Shown here: positions 13,157-22,352 of the stretch, in pieces | How positions within the stretch are numbered: position 1 is the stretch's first letter | How the letters are laid out: every line of letters begins with the position of its first letter | DNA from: Emiliania huxleyi CCMP1516 | Taxonomy: Eukaryota | DNA length: 24,219 bases | Direction: 5' to 3' | NCBI RefSeq assembly: GCF_000372725.1 | Contig: NW_005201165.1 | Location: 312,853-337,071 of the forward strand | Translations under genes and position numbers: made by a program | Notes under the pieces: generated by a model | Databases searched by the model: none | What the model saw: the letters and a program-made list of their open reading frames with translations, nothing else | What the model was told of the DNA's origin: nothing

Positions 13157-13876
13157 ATGCAGCACGCCGCTGCCGCGCCGGCCTCGGTCCTGTCTGGCTG
13201 CAAGCTTTCCTACTTTGGAATCCCAGGTCGGGCAGAAGCGATTCGCCTCTCCTTGGCCATTGGCGGCGTCGACTTTGAGGACAAGCGCATTCCCTTTCCG
13301 GAGTGGGGCAAGGTGAAGCACACGACTCCGTGGGCCACCGCCCCTGTGCTGGAGCTCGCCGACGGGTCGGAGCTTGCTCAGGCGCGGAGCATCTTGCGCT
13401 TCGTCGGCAGGCATGCCGGCCTGTACCCGGCCGACCCGCTCGCGGCGCAGCGAGCGGACGAGCTGATGGACGCACTCGAGGACCTCGGCGCGATCGTGAC
13501 CAGCGTCGGCCAGGGCCTCCCGAAGGAGGAGCAGGAGGCCGCGCGCCGAGCCGCAGTGGCGGAGGGTGGGTCGGTGTACGACTTCCTTGCGAGGCTCGAA
13601 AAGTTCGTCGCAGCGCACGGCGTAGGCGGCCACGCGGTGGGCGACGAGCTCGACGTCGCGAGCATCCTGACGTTCACCGCGCTCGGCAGGCTGGTCGGCG
13701 GCGTCTACTTTGGTGTCCCTCCCACAGCATGCGACCCCTTCCCGCGCCTCCAGGCGGTTCGGAAGACCGTGGGCGCCCACCCTGCTGTCGTCGCGTGGTA
13801 CCGGGCGCGGGTTGCGCAAACGTCGCTGGAGTCGCTCTCGCCCGCGGAGCGGGTGCTAGCGGGAGGCGCGACATGA
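13157..13876 (+). CDS. Glutathione S-transferase (sigma-like)
   Basis: KLSYFGIPGRAEAIRLSL...FEDKRI...TPWATAPVLE...LAQARSILRFVGRHAGLYP.DPLAA...D; C-terminal FPRLQAV...HPAVVAW. Confidence 0.92.
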   Translation: MQHAAAAPASVLSGCKLSYFGIPGRAEAIRLSLAIGGVDFEDKRIPFPEWGKVKHTTPWATAPVLELADGSELAQARSILRFVGRHAGLYPADPLAAQRADELMDALEDLGAIVTSVGQGLPKEEQEAARRAAVAEGGSVYDFLARLEKFVAAHGVGGHAVGDELDVASILTFTALGRLVGGVYFGVPPTACDPFPRLQAVRKTVGAHPAVVAWYRARVAQTSLESLSPAERVLAGGAT

Positions 13877-13959
13877 TGTGTGAGGATCTCCCAAGATATT
13901 GCCGGAGACTACACCGTGCGGTGCACGTCTGCCCAGAATTTGTGTATGTATGTAAAAGA

Positions 13960-13983
13960 GAGCGAGTGACGGATAAAGTCGTG
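13960..13983 (+). repeat. Left terminal inverted repeat
   Basis: gagcgagtgacggataaagtcgtg, preceded by TSD aaga. Confidence 0.85.
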
Positions 13984-14129
13984 TGAAAGAGCTGTGAAAG
14001 CGAAAGTAGCGAAATTAATTGCCCGCCGCAGGCGAAGAAAATTTCAGGGTTTTTGGTCCCCTACGCCAAAGAAATCGAAGATTCCGCCGGCGGGCGGGAG
14101 GACGCGCCAACGGGCACGCGACTCGCGCT

Positions 14130-14329
14130 ATGATCGCGCTGGTGCTTGCGTTGCTGTGGCCGTCTTCATCCGTGTCGTACACCGAGCTGGCGCCACAGCA
14201 GTACAACAACGGCTCGGTAGAGCTGCTCCACGGGACTACTATCATCATCAGAGGGCCCGGCAATGTCCACGGCGGAGCTGGCGGTGGCGGTGGCGGCGGT
14301 GGTTATGGCGGCGGCGGCGGCGGAAGCGG

Positions 14330-14378
<49 letters not shown>

Positions 14379-17300
14379 TCTTACTGGACGGGGGCGCTCG
14401 CCGCTGCCAGCTTCGCGCTGATGCGGACGTCACATGTGCAAAGTGCCAATGGTCTCCAGCGAGGCTTGCTGAACAGCTGGAACGCAGTCGTGCTGGGCGC
14501 CACTCTGTACGCCTACATGCCTACCCACTACGGGCAGCTGACCACCACCGATTGGATACCCTGGTCGGCAGAGTCGGCGGCGGCAGTGGAGGAGCTTGCG
14601 GCTGCTACGCTCGAGGAGAAGTGCGCAAGGGCGCGGCTCACGATCGACGAGCTGTGGCTCGAGGCGGCGGACGCCCAGGTGCACCCACCGCGTGTAGAAG
14701 ACCTCTCCTGTCCCCGGGTCCCAACTGCGCGCCATCTTTCGCTCTAGGAGGATGCACTCTTGCTTCGCCAACGTCAAATTGTACTCGCTGAGCACGCCCA
14801 CTGGCTAGCCACGTGTCTCGAGTCGGACATGTGCCAGCCGTGCGAGGGAGGGGGGGGGGCAGGGCCAGGGCGTCCGTCGAAGGAGACTATGCAAAAGCGA
14901 AAGGCCGCAGATCAGCTGGCCTCTCAACATGGACGCTCCTTCTTTCAGAACGCGGGTTTCGCAATTCCTTCGCGGCCGCCGAAGCCTGCCTTGCCCTCGC
15001 AGCAGCGCACTATCACTGAACCTTCTGCCTCCTCCTCTACCCTCGGCAATGAGGCCGCCGAGTCGGCTACTCCCACCTCCGGCGCCGACGCAGAACTCAC
15101 TGGCAGCGATGACGCGATGGACGGCAGTTCCTGCGCAGACCTGCCCGAGGCTCAGGCAGCGGAGGAAGCGGCAGAAGCAGAAGCCTCAGAGGCCGCAGAG
15201 AAAGCGGCCGCGGCTGTTCGCGCTGCGGAGCAGGCGGAGTCGAGGGTTGACTACGCCAGTGCTCTTCCGCAGGGTCGCATGCCGGCGCATGGCGAGCCGA
15301 GCTCGACGGGTCGCGAAGGTGCCTTGCGCGTGACAGCGACCCCGTACAATGATGGCCGGTACGATTTCAGCGGAGCATACAACATCTACGTCAGCGTCGC
15401 CGTACTCAAAGGTTCTGGTGGCAGATGGGAGGCCCTTAATCGGCAGACAACATACACCGCCACGTCTACCGATCCTGAGGATTGCCAGGCCGAGGCACTT
15501 GCAGAGGCGCGACGCATCGCGTGGCGCCTCTTGGAGCAGTCCAGGCAGCAGAGCGAAAAAAAGAAAAGGCGGCGCGGCCAACAGCTTCCCGCACCACCAG
15601 CCTCCGACCGCAGACTCCGGGAGAGAGGAGCGGCACAGCCGTCAGCAAAGCCTACGGATGGGCGCGCAAGCAACGGCCGCAAGAAAGGCTCATCCTCGCA
15701 GGCATCAGCCGAGTCATCAGCCGGCGCGGCACTGGCCGCTCACAGCTACGGAAACCCTTCGGTCAACTCGCAGCTTTTTGTGCCACTCGCAGAGAAGGCG
15801 CCTTCTATGCAGCTGGCAATGCTCCAGCGCACTCAGGGCGAGCTTCGGCGCGTCCAATTGCAGCTGGCGCAGGAGAAGACGGCGCACGAGGCAAGCAAGG
15901 AGACAATCAGCGGCTTGAAGGTCGACCTCGGGCGGCTCCAACAGTGGGCGACCTCTCAGTTGGCCGTCGATATGGACCAGCTACCGAGCCCCCGACAGCT
16001 CGATGCGCTACTCGGCCAGGGCTACACCGCCACGGAGCGAGGCCGCACGATTTACAATCATCTCGACCGCGCCTTCAACGCCATCCAAACCATCACTGGT
16101 GGCGACCTGAGGAAGACGGCAGAGCTCATCGCCTTTGCGAGCAAGAAACTGGATCTCAATCGCGACGATCACGTGGATGAGCGGAAGCAAAGGGCAGTGA
16201 AGGGCATTATTGATTCGTTGCGCCAATTCTTTGTAAAGGCGCGAGGCATCACCGGCGGGGGACGTCCTCCCAAAAAGCTCTCGCAGGCTGTCCAGGCAAT
16301 CGTCACGGCGATTGCACACGCGCCCGAGCTGGGTGGATCGAGTCTGGCAGCGGTAGCGAGCGTGCTCGAGATGGGTGGGTCAGGTGCGAGCAAGCTCTCG
16401 GCCCGCGGGGATGCGGCGGACGCCTTTATTTCCGACGGCGACTACTCGATCCTCTTTGAAGACCGATCCAAGGTGCGTTCGGATGCGTACACAGATGAGC
16501 AGCTAGATTGGGTCAAGACCAACGTCTGGTTGAGCGACGACTTTACGAGAGAGTCGGAGGCAAAGAAGGATGAGATATTCGATCCAAAGTCTCGGAAGTC
16601 CAATCGTGCGCACCACCGACTGCGGTGGCTCGAAGTTCCCCTCATGGAACTCTATCAACGCGGCAGAGAACTCTACCAGGAAGAGGCGGCGAGGAGAGAG
16701 TGGAAGGTGACGAAGATGTCGTCAACAACGATACGCAATCTACGTCCCTTTTGGGTCAAGGATCCGACGAGAGACGTCTGCCTCTGCCGCTATCACCTTG
16801 AGTTTGATCTTCTCGCCAAGGGGTTCACTCGACTCTGCTCCGCCATCAAGTGCCCGAACGACTGCGATATCTGCGAAAATGCGCCCAAGTTGACGACCGG
16901 GCTCAAACTCCGCGCCGCACTCACGTGCCCGAGGCCAGAGGGGGAGGAGCGGTACGACGACCGCGCGTGTGTGGACGGGGAATGCCAAAAGTGCAAGGAG
17001 CTGCAGCTAATGGCAAATATTGTTTGCCCGGCTCGACGTGCATTGATGGCCGACCATCAACTCAAGTGGGAGAAGTATGAAAAGACCCACATCGGACAAG
17101 ATAAGGCGACGGGGGAGGACCGATACAAAAATGACTTCATCGAGCAGGCTAGCCTAGCCTCCCCCCAAAGCCCCAACGCCCAACGCCATCCTAACGTCTG
17201 ACGCCGTCCTTCGGCCTGTAGTCCGGCGTCGGGGAAGAGCTGTTCCAAGAGATTGGCGAATGCCTCAAGACGTTCAACCCGCATCACGATCTTGCCAAGC

Positions 17301-20251
17301 GACAGGTGTCTCACACGCAATCCCCGCCTCCCCTCGCGCGTTCGCCTCCGCTCGCGCGTCAGCCTCCTCCCGGCCAGCACACAACATTGACACACCGTGC
17401 CGTCTGTGCTCAGGACGACGACTGGTCGGCACTCAAGACTGACTTTCCGAGGGGCAGTTTCGTCTCGGTGCAGGACTTTTCTGAGAATCATCACCATAAA
17501 GTGCGCAACGAGCCCCAGGCCAAGTATTACCAGTCGGTCGACAGCACGCTCTACATGGTTGTGGTCCGATACCACCTCGATGACGCGACCAAGCTACCAG
17601 ACGAGGTGAGAGACGAGCTTCGCGCCACTTATGCGAGTGTCGATCGGCCGCCGATCATCGTCGAGACCCTGGCCTTTGTGAGCGCAGATCGAAAGCACGA
17701 CAACGCATTTGTGCGTCACGTGAACGATCGCTACGTCGTGCCATACATGCAGTCGATCGGCGATTTCAGTACGCACTATGCTCGATCGGATGGTTGCAAA
17801 TCGCAGTTCAAGTGCGCGATGCACTTTGATTGGGTCAGTCGCCGCCAGTTTGAAACGGGGGTGCGAACGGACTGGTCCTTCTTTTGCAGCTGTCACGGCA
17901 AGTGCGACTGCGATCCGGAGGGCGGGTCGATCAAGTCAGCGGCGGCGAACTGGGAGCGCCATGGCGACCTCGAGGGCATGCGGGTTCAAGCCAAGCTCCC
18001 GGACGCGGCCAGCTTTGTCAAGTGGGCCAACGAGGGCAGTGCCGCCGGCTCGCCACACGGATATCACGCCGGCCTCACCGAACCTAAGGATTCCCTGTTG
18101 ACCAAGCTGCGATGGGGCCGAAAAAATGCAATCTGGCGGCGGCAATTCATCAACGTGCCGACCACCGGCCCACAGGCAGTCTCCCGCATCTACTCCGAGT
18201 GCACGCTCGACGGCTCCGCTCGCATGCACTCTTTTGTTGACGTTGGTACACCGGGCACCATCTTGTGGCGTGAGCGTTCGTGCCATCAGTGCGAGAACTG
18301 CTGGGCTGGCAGAGCATCGACCGGGTGCTCCGACGAGAAAAGGTTTGGGCGGGCGGTCCGCATGCCGATCATCCACCAGAAGAAACCGGAGAGCAGCCTC
18401 ACCCGAACGCTGCGGAGTGTGCAGTCAAAGCCGCTGCCTGAGATGATCAAAGAGGTAACCGATGGTCAGTATGTTTGCGTCGTTGTGAAGGACAACCCGC
18501 ACGAGCCGTGGATGCTTGGCCGTGCCGGCGGCGGCGTGGAGAAGGCGACGGCCAATGACGTGACGGAGGCGGCGAAGCTCGGCTTTACTATCAAAACGGG
18601 GGCGGAGGTGCTGCGACTCATCAAATTTGAGCCATTTGAGCTTGGCTCGCGACGATACATTGAGACCAAGGTGCCGTTGGTGGTGCCAGCGACGGCCTTG
18701 CGGCGAGGAGAGCTCAAACCAAACAACGTGAACGAGCTGCGCAAATCGGTCAGGATCAAAAATCAAGCCAGCCGCTATGGTGAGTCGACCTTTGAACTCA
18801 AAGAAGAAGATCTACGTGCAATCGTCGCGATCCTTGGGAGCGAGATTGGAGACTTTAAAGTCGACAAGCTTCTCGCACACCGAGTCGTCGTCCAGAGGGG
18901 CAAGCCGGTGGACCAGTTCCAAGTCAAGTGGCAGGGATGGGAGCGTGAGGAGGACTTGACTTGGGAGCCGCTAAGCGCCTTTGGCGGCGATGAGACACTG
19001 CTCGCCGAGGCGGCCGACGTGAAAGCCAAAGCTGCTGCAGCAGCCCAGGCTGCCACGAAGCAGCGGGCAGCGACGGCGCAGCGTGAGGCAGAGCAGGAGA
19101 GGGCGGCGGTAGAAGCGGCCAAGGCGGCGGCCGAGGCGGCGGCAGCGGAGCACGCAAAGCGAGAGCAAGAGGCGGTGGAGCAAGCGGCAGCGGCGGAGAA
19201 AGCCGAGGCAGCGGCGGCGGCAGCGGCGGCGGCGGAGGCTGCGGCGGCGAAGGCGGCGGCGGCAGAGGCGGCGGCGGCAGAGGCGGCGGCGGATGAGGTG
19301 GCGTCGGCAGAGCAGGCGGCGCGGGAGGGGACGTCAAAGGCAGGGGCCACCAACCGCGCTCTGACTCAGGCACCGATATCGATGCTTATGGCAGAGTCGG
19401 GGGCGGAGCGTGACACCGCAGCCGCCGCGGCGAGCTCTACTGCATCTCGTGCGGCCGAGGAGGCTAAGCTATCGCGTGCTCGGGCGGAGGAGGCGGAGGA
19501 GGCTGCCGCCAAAGCTGCTGCCGCGGTTGCGCGTGCAGAGCAGGCCAGTCGTCAGATCACAGTTCGTACGGGTTACTTCGGGTCGCTCAAGGAGATGCTG
19601 TCGCTGGCGGGGCGTGAGGTCGTGCCGGTCGCAGGCGACGGCAACTGCGGCTTCTACGCATTTTTGGGGTGCGAAGACGCCATTGAGCACTGCCGGGGCC
19701 GGACGCGGGCACCGACTGCGCGTGACTATGCCGCTCAGCAGAATCTACGCGAGGAATGCGTCAAATGGCTGCAGGATCGCCCGCAGCTAACAGCATGGCA
19801 TGCGGGCATGGACGCCGTCTCCAACTCTCGGAGACAATCATCGTGGAGCGACGCGGCAATCAAAAATTTGGAGGGCGGCAAGCAGAGCACATCTGATAGC
19901 ATGGGAGTGTACGCGAACGAGGCTGCTCTCCGCGCGATGGCGGGGCTTCGGAAGGAGCCCCTTGTGGTTGTTGATTCCAAAGCTGGGCCGTCTCTGAGCA
20001 AGCAGGTTCGCAATCGCCCGCCAGACCAAGTGGCGGTGTATGAAACTCATGCAGGGCCAGAGGATAAGCGGCGCTGGTTTGCCTCTGTGATGAAATGGAT
20101 GTCATGGGCGAACGACATTGCGCCGGTGCTGCAGCGTCGCCTCGAGGGCAACCAGCTGGAGGACGACCCCAAGTATCGCGTGATTGTCCACAATGGCGAG
20201 CCGGCATCGAGCCGCGGCGGCCACTTTGACGCAACGCGCGTGGTAGTGTAG
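14130..20251 (+). CDS. Sola2-type DDD transposase-chromodomain-OTU fusion; predicted exons 14130-14678, 14748-17147, 17222-17305, 17414-20251 (~1956 aa; ~1746 aa if it starts at ATG 14829)
   Basis: CLCRYH and Cys clusters; spliced HHDLAKRQ|DDDWSALK...QDFSEN (D at 17474); SDGCKSQFK (D at 17789); WSFFCSCHGKCDCDPEGGSIK; RERSCHQCENC; chromodomain ~18854-18985; OTU GDGNC (C at 19646)...GHFDA (H at 20222). All three introns are phase 0 and restore one open frame. Confidence 0.85.
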
Positions 20252-20335
20252 TAGCGTGTCATAGCGTGCGTGCGTGTGTAAGGAATGGACCGCGTGTTTT
20301 CTTTTATTTTCCTCGACGGGCGCTCGACGCGCCGT

Positions 20336-20989
20336 ATGGAGCACGCGCGCGCCCGCTCACGCTGCCCAGCATGCCTGCAGCATCCAAACGAGGCGCACGG
20401 CGTCGCTCAGCCGTGTCCACGCGGCTTCGCTCCTGTCCTAACCGGCGCCATCTGGGCGGCTGCTGCGGAGCTGCTGCCGGCGGTGCGACAACTGGCCGAC
20501 AGATACGACGCTCAGGGCACCCGTCGGCGATCCACCGGGAAAGGAACGAAGGCGCCGCTGTCGGCGATTCACCGCCGCTCGTTCCCGTCTCTTAAAGCTG
20601 GCTGCACCGTCGATGCGCACATCGAGGCGCTCGTGGACGAGGGAGACGTCGCCTCCTCTTTCGTACCGGGGCACTGTTCGCGCCGGAAGGCACCGCGCAC
20701 TGCCAAGTACATTAGCCTTCATCTCTCCTACCGCCGGCCGGGAGTGCAGCCTTCGCCATCGCTGGGTGAGATGGTCCTCGACTTTGGCACCTGCGAAGTA
20801 ATGAACAACATGCAGTACATCATATGGCGCTATGACAGCCCTGCGATGGGCGACCTCGACGCAGACGAGGCGGAGCTCATCTGCGCGGCGCAGATCGCCG
20901 ACTTTCTCTCTCTCCCTGCGCGAGTGGTTGCGCCACCTTGGATGAGGCATATGGGCTGGGCAGGGGAGGTGGTAGAGGAGGTCGACTGA
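20336..20989 (+). CDS. Second transposon-internal ORF, unknown function (alternative start 20285)
   Basis: 217-234 aa uninterrupted ORF with protein-like composition, N-terminal CPAC..H....H.....C cluster and acidic C-terminus. Confidence 0.5.
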   Translation: MEHARARSRCPACLQHPNEAHGVAQPCPRGFAPVLTGAIWAAAAELLPAVRQLADRYDAQGTRRRSTGKGTKAPLSAIHRRSFPSLKAGCTVDAHIEALVDEGDVASSFVPGHCSRRKAPRTAKYISLHLSYRRPGVQPSPSLGEMVLDFGTCEVMNNMQYIIWRYDSPAMGDLDADEAELICAAQIADFLSLPARVVAPPWMRHMGWAGEVVEEVD

Positions 20990-21189
20990 GGGCGCGAGGC
21001 CGCCAATCGTCACAGTCTGCTGCTGACTGTCGGTCACTGACTGGTTGCGCATTGCGCTGGCCGCGCAGCGGCCTTTAGAAAATTTTGGCCGCAGGCCTAG
21101 GTTTTGAAAGATCAAGAGAATAAGCGCGGGTGAGGCTTTGAGAAGCTGCCGTTTGCGGCTTCCTAAGTCAATTTTTCGAGAGGAACGTT

Positions 21190-21286
21190 TTGGCTGAGCT
21201 AGAACTTCTCCAAAGTCGCGCGATCATCGAGTTTTGAGTCAATAATTATGAAAGGGAAGGGAGAGGGAGAGTTCTAGCTCAGCCAA
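21190..21286. repeat. Subterminal 17-bp perfect inverted repeat
   Basis: ttggctgagctagaact (21190-21206) / agttctagctcagccaa (21270-21286). Confidence 0.92.
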
Positions 21287-21379
21287 TCGATTCAGCGTGC
21301 TCTGAAACGCCCAAAACCGTCGAGTTTTTCGCCGTGGTCCAAACAGAGAGCTTAATATTTTGATTTTCTTGGCCACGGC

Positions 21380-21401
21380 CACGATTACCCGTCACTCGCT
21401 C
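21380..21401 (-). repeat. Right terminal inverted repeat
   Basis: cacgattacccgtcactcgctc, followed by TSD aaga. Confidence 0.85.
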
Positions 21402-22352
21402 AAGAGGGATCGCGAATGTTGGAGACGGAGCTCGGAGGGTGTGGACGCGTCCAGTACACATGCATATCAAGTGAAAGAGCGAGTCAAAAGACCTCCCATT
21501 GCAAGAAGCCAGTGAGCGTGTGAGAGAGACAGACCCAGGAAGGTTTTACAGCGTTACACGGCCCCTGCCCGAGGCCGAGCTCAGGCTCGACAGAGTCGTC
21601 TCGGTCCTCGGTGAACATTGTGCATGCTCCATGCACTCCGCCCTCATCTTCACTCACTTGTTCGATGTCCCGGTCGGCGTGTTCACGGAAAAACGAAAAA
21701 GCACAACCCCGGGCCCGAAATCGCACAGTGACAGTCACGCAACGCGCAGGAGCAAACACCTTCCTTCTCGCGCGCGCAAACGCCGACTCGCTCGGAGGCC
21801 GCACTGGCTGTTCACGTAAATAAAAGCACAACCGGACAAACAAACGTGTGAGTGTTAGAGTTGTTTGGTATTGGACCTTACACGCCTGTAACCTCTCTTT
21901 AAGGTATTGCTAAAAATCTCTCTCTCTCTCAACCGGACCCAAGACGCACAAGCACAGACAGTCGAGAAGGGTCAGACAGCAGCGACAGTCAGAATTGATT
22001 GATTGATAGTCAGAAGTCAGCGGCTGTTCACACAGAAACACAACCACGGTCGAGAGACCCCAGATTGGCATCCATGCCTCTCTGGACAGGGTGGCCCGCC
22101 ACAACGACCCCTGGAATTGCGACTCGCCGCTTTCCTCCCGCTGTGATCCTGTGTGAGCTCTGTGTCTTGATTTGCCAACAACATACCTAAAACCCAAAAA
22201 CGGACCCAGAGCACAAGCTCAGAGAAGTCAGCGGCTGTTCACACCCTGCTTTCGCTAGTCTGGCTCGGCCCTTTCGGCTCGCCCTGTGCTCGGTCCGCAG
22301 ACGGTCCGCAGTCAGACGACAGCGCTCGCTCGACGTCCAACCGTCTGAGAAT

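Follow-up and report, generated by a model that had tools for sequence, protein, structure and literature searches.

A DNA transposon of Emiliania huxleyi that very probably encodes a Sola2-type transposase fused to a chromodomain and an OTU domain

We describe a DNA transposon of 7,442 bp in a 24,219-nucleotide stretch of the Emiliania huxleyi CCMP1516 genome (assembly GCF_000372725.1, contig NW_005201165.1, positions 312,853 to 337,071, forward strand; this whole stretch is called the window, and all positions refer to it). The element, at 13960–21401, very probably encodes a Sola2-type transposase to which a chromodomain and an OTU domain are genuinely fused. This combination had been proposed in the original prediction for positions 14130–20251; the outer bounds of the element lie beyond that interval, and a further domain between the catalytic core and the chromodomain had been overlooked. 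The evidence below draws on database relatives (P and L numbers), four sequencing runs read as DNA (X1–X4, two of them without a recorded kind), metatranscriptome contigs (X12), and run X10, which was taken as RNA by guess from its record and because its contig is spliced. The parts of the element and its flanking target-site duplications (TSDs) are as follows (TIR, terminal inverted repeat).

13956–13959, no strand: left TSD, AAGA, 4 bp
13960–13972, + strand: left TIR, 13 bp, perfect, first letters GAG
14130–14678, + strand: predicted exon 1, with a hydrophobic start and a Gly-rich tract; coding use predicted from sequence only
14748–17147, + strand: exon 2, with a low-complexity start, a helical region, and a Cys/His-rich segment of the kind located ahead of Sola2 catalytic cores
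17148–17221, + strand: intron 2, GC-AG, 74 nt, absent from the X10 contig and retained in the X1, X2, X3, and X4 contigs
17222–17305, + strand: exon 3, 28 codons, aligning to residues 1360–1386 of relative P0166
17306–17413, + strand: intron 3, GT-AG, 108 nt, absent from the X10 contig and retained in X1–X4
17414–18139, + strand: catalytic core of RNase H-like type; the DDD triad probably corresponds to the Asp codons 17474, 17789, and 17912
18431–18775, + strand: predicted beta-barrel domain, possibly BAH-like
18848–19003, + strand: HP1/Polycomb-like chromodomain, cage residues Phe 18854, Trp 18929, and Trp 18938
19004–19558, + strand: Ala/Glu-rich low-complexity linker of ~185 amino acids (89 Ala, 27 Glu)
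19568–20251, + strand: OTU-fold cysteine protease domain with the stop codon; Asp 19637, Cys 19646, His 20222, and Asp 20228
21389–21401, − strand: right TIR, 13 bp; an X12 contig departs from the window exactly after 21401
21402–21405, no strand: right TSD, AAGA

The core bears out the proposed Sola2-type identity in its motif order and its integrase-like predicted fold. In an unscored comparison by eye, the motifs follow the published Sola2 alignment in order, from Cys-x-Cys-x-x-His to the final His-x-Phe. With the Repbase Sola2 families and the dictyostelid DFa and PPa elements (PMC3627910; statements on cited papers, here and below, refer to excerpts of them), the transposase shares RP followed by an aromatic residue, C-x-C-x-x-H, DF[SA]EN, D-x-x-H-D, SDG-x3-Q[FY]K, W-x-FF-x-x-x-HGK-x-x-x-D-x-x-GG, and G-x-x-x-x-H-x-F, and the element shares the 12–13-bp TIRs and 4-bp TSDs of this group. 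Unlike those elements, it has an insertion of ~40 amino acids after the first strands, an HGKCDCDPEGG variant, a TSD of AAGA rather than AWWT, and a C-terminal chromodomain, linker, and OTU domain; the published alignment, and with it the comparison, extends to the end of the core. The Sola superfamily is described as having a DDD transposase with an RNase H-like fold, TIRs of 11–1124 bp, and lengths of mostly 2–9 kb (PMC10741241). The element accordingly combines a DDD triad and a predicted RNase H-like fold with the 4-bp TSD of this superfamily (seen at one site only), a 13-bp TIR, and a length of 7,442 bp. Sola2 termini begin with 5'-GRG, which the GAG of the element fits, and the target duplication of Sola3 is TTAA, from which AAGA differs. 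Two of the acidic residues, D126 and D167, the latter being the third Asp at HGK-x-x-x-D, were invariant in 18 of 18 alignment rows, and the structural model of residues 1–242 matched retroviral integrases, IstA, and Mos1 at Z 8–9 (Z 8–10 for the core overall). Neither Pfam nor single-sequence PDB searches recognized the core, the barrel, or the OTU domain. Relatives of the core were absent from viral contigs (0 of 49 pattern matches), as were relatives of the OTU domain (0 of 57).

The chromodomain is recognizable directly, and the aromatic-cage residues ascribed to it are in place. It matched Pfam PF00385 with an E-value of 1.6e-9 (score 38 bits, cut-off 25.1), and all 52 of the 52 PDB sequence matches at E<=1 were chromodomain-containing proteins, with Oxpecker and Rhino at the top. 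Its cage, F/W/W, aligns with the Y/W/F-Y of HP1-type chains, and among 31 distinct family chromodomains, 30 are aromatic at all three cage positions.

For the OTU-like module at the C-terminus, described earlier by its D-x2-C and His signature, confirmation came from its predicted fold and from conservation of the catalytic residues. An AlphaFold2 model built with 61 sequences had a pLDDT of 93.7; all seven of its Foldseek matches at E<=0.001 were OTU domains, and VIA-align placed OTUD3 first (Z 14.8, rmsd 2.4, 140 residues). The model resembles OTUD3, Otu2, OTUD1, and the Wolbachia OTU (4bou, 7pl7, 4bop, and 6w9r; Z 12.4–14.8) in fold and in its D-x-x-C and H-x-D residues; unlike these deubiquitinases, the domain of the window falls below the Pfam OTU model, carries ~80 extra residues, and is 14–19% identical to them. 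The top Atlas match had a score of 0.95 with 192/256 features, and OTU was annotated in 35% of the members of that cluster. PF02338 was matched by two weak hits of the family profile, P0164 above the cut-off and P0153 below it, and a five-sequence OTU profile returned non-significant PDB matches only (best E 0.45). Within 142 profile matches, scored column by column over those with coverage, conservation was 71 of 71 for the Cys, 70 of 71 for the Asp before it, and 68 of 69 for the His; the third triad position was D, E, N, S, or Q in 68 of 68, and the 25 matches that span both Cys and His all kept both. Judged from the model and these residues, the domain is likely to be an active ubiquitin or ubiquitin-like protease. 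A weak match to the OTU profile was also seen at residues 1590–1781 of P0142 (E 2.7e-6), a Helitron-like protein that also contains a PIF1 helicase and a UCH domain; from this case, the OTU module may be common to several transposon classes.

The domain that had been overlooked is a barrel between the core and the chromodomain. Its best listed structural match was the BAH domain of EBS (Z 5.9, rmsd 3.7, 90 residues), a Z in the range of common arrangements, and weak Foldseek matches were to ZMET2, DNMT1 BAH1, and a polybromo BAH (E 0.001–0.04). Atlas matches were to unnamed clusters only, with low recognition. In the family alignment, the barrel is also present in distant relatives without a chromodomain. 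It is possibly BAH-like, and we treat this as a lead from the predicted fold rather than an assignment.

The same domain order recurs in divergent relatives. A chromodomain adjoins the core or the barrel in 41 rows, of which 12, the window included, have an OTU domain in the same frame. The OTU domains of these eleven relatives are 34–51% identical to that of the window, apart from one at 96%; P0001 belongs to the same family as the window, and P0018 and P0145 are probably one element. In L003 the OTU lies in a neighboring frame, and the remaining chromodomain rows end after the chromodomain or are partial. The linker varies from 124 to 432 amino acids across relatives, and in 6 of the 12 rows with both domains its region contains a RING motif, C3HC4-like in P0007 and P0008 and RING-H2-like in P0018, P0145, P0166, and L002; Pfam supports four of these (E 4e-6 to 4e-4), with only P0007 above the cut-off. 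No RING motif is present in the linker of the window itself. The composition of this Ala/Glu spacer is as predicted, and its length, ~185 amino acids, exceeds the ~170 claimed. A distant relative on a long branch, L023 (31–3846, + strand), combines the core and chromodomain with an Ulp1 domain (Peptidase_C48; E 2e-6, above the cut-off). One relative, 70% identical in the core, is attributed by its source to Phaeocystis antarctica; together with the high GC content, the GC-AG intron, and the marine runs, this agrees with a haptophyte host. A quick tree with SH-aLRT support only was built from 55 core rows, excluding near-duplicates, rows with <200 core residues, P0018, and P0166; in it, the OTU bearers fell in one clade of 12 rows (support 99), spread over several sub-branches. 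A separate clade of 15 rows contains chromodomains, with an OTU in none of its rows. The sister clade P0009–P0016 ends directly after the chromodomain, and P0017 and P0020 are without a chromodomain.

Exon 17414–20251 is, as originally described, one stop-free frame carrying all of the motifs: the frame 17222–20251 is open over 1009 codons, with DFSEN at 17474, SDGC at 17786, HGKCDCD at 17894, the chromodomain stretch at 18848–18970, GDGNC at 19634, and GHFDA at 20219. The acceptor before 17414 is used, as the X10 joint 17302>17411 has GT..AG at cut +3, and removal of introns 2 and 3 restores a single frame. With both introns removed, X10 contig 3 spans 14809–19198, from exon 2 to beyond the chromodomain; transcript continuity past 18850, which had been proposed for confirmation, is thus seen as far as 19198, short of bridging the linker. 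Other X10 contigs cover 19373–20283. The intron-less relative P0166 (2568 amino acids) aligns with exons 2, 3, and 4 in order, with 48% identity to exon 2 over 663 columns. The helical region of exon 2 gave a weak HTH_32 match under the cut-off (E 0.013). Exon 1 is in frame with exon 2 if a predicted intron at 14679–14747 (GT-AG, 69 nt) is removed; no RNA contig covers this junction, and no match to exon 1 was found in relatives. The product predicted from 14130 with intron 1 spliced would be 1956 amino acids, both the start and intron 1 being predicted only. This start is hydrophobic and signal-peptide-like, which is odd for a nuclear enzyme. J-domain-like segments follow a hydrophobic stretch at the starts of three relatives (P0166 residues 61–112, the 5' end of L002, and P0045 residues 25–65); they have the HPD motif and match Pfam DnaJ below the cut-off (E 0.02 and 0.001).

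With perfect TIRs, a TSD, and its DDD residues kept, the element looks intact at the sequence level. When the two flanking regions of the element were doublet-shuffled 1000 times, a 13-bp inverted repeat arose in 11 shuffles, and such a repeat plus a duplication in 0; the TIR was absent among the 25 longest pairs of the automatic inverted-repeat listings. An X12 contig branches off exactly after 21401, as a second insertion would. Among relatives, L057 (42–4650), L058 (23–4637), L059 (4407–9015), and L061 (77–4446) are compact elements of 4.4–4.6 kb; their TIRs open with GGG and extend over at least 20 bp, and their flanks are AT-rich.

In contig depth, which is not copy number, the arms of the element reached ~1,400–2,300 in X2 and up to 3,000 in X3, against 22.5 and 21.8 for the core, respectively. 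DNA runs contain internal-deletion joints (e.g., 14178>19326 and 14789>19432), and in the database proteins P0256 and P0259 the left arm reads directly into the right arm. Combined, the depths, joints, and arm-to-arm proteins point to one or few full-length copies and many non-autonomous ones, the internally deleted copies probably being mobilized by the same transposase. Provided that nothing intervenes, the X2 joint 14178>19326 would bring the initial 16 codons into phase with the last part of the linker and a complete OTU domain; in X2 and X3, moreover, contig depth over the OTU exceeds that over the core, and OTU-only derivatives may exist. No empty-site joint spanning the whole element was found among the joints listed for the four DNA runs. 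One X3 contig ends at 13960 with 14 unlike letters, and the flank depth in X2 is ~2x that of the core, which hints at a hemizygous insertion, depth again being no copy number. Two further features, one in the 3' arm and one outside the element, are as follows.

20282–20989, + strand: open frame of 235 codons in the 3' arm, retained in many non-autonomous copies
13157–13876, + strand: glutathione S-transferase (GST) gene; an X10 RNA contig ends at 13959, the last base before the element

The 235-codon frame was considered as a conserved second gene and set aside: it is without a Pfam match and carries frame-breaking indels in high-depth DNA contigs, and most of its 95 database matches are incomplete and near-identical, with frame changes in several of those inspected. 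It is probably not a conserved gene. Elsewhere in the window, very high-depth repeats occupy 21690–22195, just outside the right end, with loose contig ends near 21697, 21737, 21933, 22047, and 22193 that probably belong to other small mobile elements. A 78-bp inverted repeat (1163–1240/3171–3248, 97% complementary) encloses a 434-codon minus-strand frame that appears BTB-like by eye.

The domain order suggests a mechanism in which the transposase is tethered to methylated nucleosomes by its chromodomain and removes ubiquitin locally during transposition; as a whole, this goes beyond the anatomy, and we give it an even chance. The DDD core would cut at the 13-bp repeats and insert with a 4-bp stagger. 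The chromodomain, perhaps aided by the BAH-like barrel, would bind a methyl-lysine histone tail of the H3K9me or H3K27me type and so bias target capture. At the break, the protease on its long linker would deubiquitinate histones or repair factors, which would let integration and gap repair finish. A broader picture, which we offer as rather doubtful, would make the barrel and chromodomain a double reader of histone methylation and the OTU an eraser, with a RING writer captured twice in relatives and Ulp1 replacing OTU in a distant branch, so that these transposases of a haptophyte lineage would pick methylated chromatin and edit its ubiquitin. A BAH domain is paired with a chromodomain in plant chromomethylases.

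Several observations weigh against this reading. X10 contig 3 differs from the window at 79 of ~4,100 letters, and the expressed sequence therefore belongs to a sister copy or another strain. All runs break at the Ala-rich repeat 19199–19306, which neither RNA nor DNA contigs cross, so a transcript joining chromodomain and OTU was not directly seen, and one X12 metatranscriptome contig (record 19) is unspliced. Judging by the architectures of P0009–P0016, P0017, and P0020, the wider lineage can do without either add-on. Finally, the insertion lies 84 bp downstream of the stop codon of the transcribed GST gene in a gene-rich window, which, as a single site, disfavors strict targeting to heterochromatin.

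The position beside an active gene fits an explanation in which the chromodomain recognizes silenced donor copies, whose ubiquitin marks the OTU domain (joined by the RING in relatives) then edits, freeing them for transcription or excision and leaving target choice unaffected. The depth of the arms, far above that of the core, means that many copies are available to mobilize, and evasion of host suppression has been proposed for such fusions (10.1101/2021.11.30.470311). Release from silencing sits less well with both domains being part of the transposase itself instead of a separate gene product, and we regard it as unlikely, if the foremost of the alternatives. Behind it ranks the view that chromatin ubiquitin is not the substrate and that the OTU domain deubiquitinates the transposase itself or cleaves its ~1,950-amino-acid product. 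The long low-complexity linkers and the viral OTU-fold proteases among the structural matches would suit this, and in six relatives the adjoining RING might adjust how fast the protein turns over. However, the structural matches are headed by deubiquitinases of cellular or bacterial origin (OTUD3, the Wolbachia OTU, Otu2, and OTUD1), and no conserved cleavage site was seen in a linker that ranges over 124–432 amino acids; the proposal is improbable in our view.

Much lower still stands the idea that the added domains are captured pieces of host genes with no role in transposition. The N-terminal and linker regions do vary freely, as the J-domain-like starts and the two RING types illustrate, and deletion derivatives shuffle these parts; however, families with 31–51% OTU identity share the catalytic and cage residues, and OTU domains are spread over several sub-branches of a single clade. 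The least credible option is that the locus is an immobile host chromatin gene of transposase origin. It is spliced and expressed, and its core is at about flank-level depth in the DNA runs, as a domesticated gene would be, whereas the perfect TIRs, intact TSD, and intact DDD residues, the second junction at the same end in X12, and the internally deleted derivatives all speak for a mobile element. Tethering to methylated nucleosomes with local ubiquitin removal thus remains our preferred reading, at the even chance given above.

Individual parts of this architecture have precedents. Chromodomains occur on several Gypsy lineages, including chromoviruses and Ectocarpus lineages (PMC12477816), and on hAT elements of the sponge Ephydatia (10.1101/2021.11.30.470311), and in the MAGGY retrotransposon a chromodomain accounts for targeting to H3K9me regions (cited in 10.1101/2021.11.30.470311). 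In the Gypsy integrases and hAT fusions, as in the window, the chromodomain is C-terminal to a DDE/D integrase-fold enzyme; unlike the present case, the excerpted accounts of them mention no Sola element or OTU. Ginger1 transposases carry a C-terminal OTU or Ulp1, with Ulp1 and PHD together in Ginger1-9_HM, and Ulp1 and OTU are found in Mutator and Helitron, respectively; an action of OTU/Ulp1 on repair has been put forward for Ginger1 as a proposal only (PMC2836005). The window thus resembles Ginger1 in having a ubiquitin/SUMO protease at the C-terminus of a transposase and, in one Ginger1 case, a reader plus a protease, but it belongs to another superfamily, its reader is a chromodomain paired with OTU, and its relatives add a RING. 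No Sola element with a chromodomain or OTU was found in the full-text literature, whose coverage did not extend to Repbase, the 2009 Sola paper, or the table of 823 fusions in 10.1101/2021.11.30.470311, which may bear on novelty; excerpts of PMC5751038, PMC6839031, PMC6875170, PMC10741241, and 10.1101/2021.09.26.461848 contained none either. The suggestion that no such reader-plus-eraser pair is known on a Sola transposase agrees with the literature found here; the pairing itself has a DDE precedent in Ginger1-9_HM. Given this case and the hAT-chromodomain fusions, the novelty is limited to the Sola2 family and this particular set of domains.

These results bear on two questions: the basis on which cut-and-paste transposons select chromatin, and the reason many transposases come with ubiquitin or SUMO proteases. 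The lineage offers a natural series on one core, with the barrel only, with a chromodomain added, with a chromodomain and an OTU, with a RING as well, or with Ulp1, and among its members is one that is intact and spliced and has defined ends; each module is addressable by point mutation. Chromatin-directed integration tools might also start from a transposase that brings its own methyl-lysine reader.

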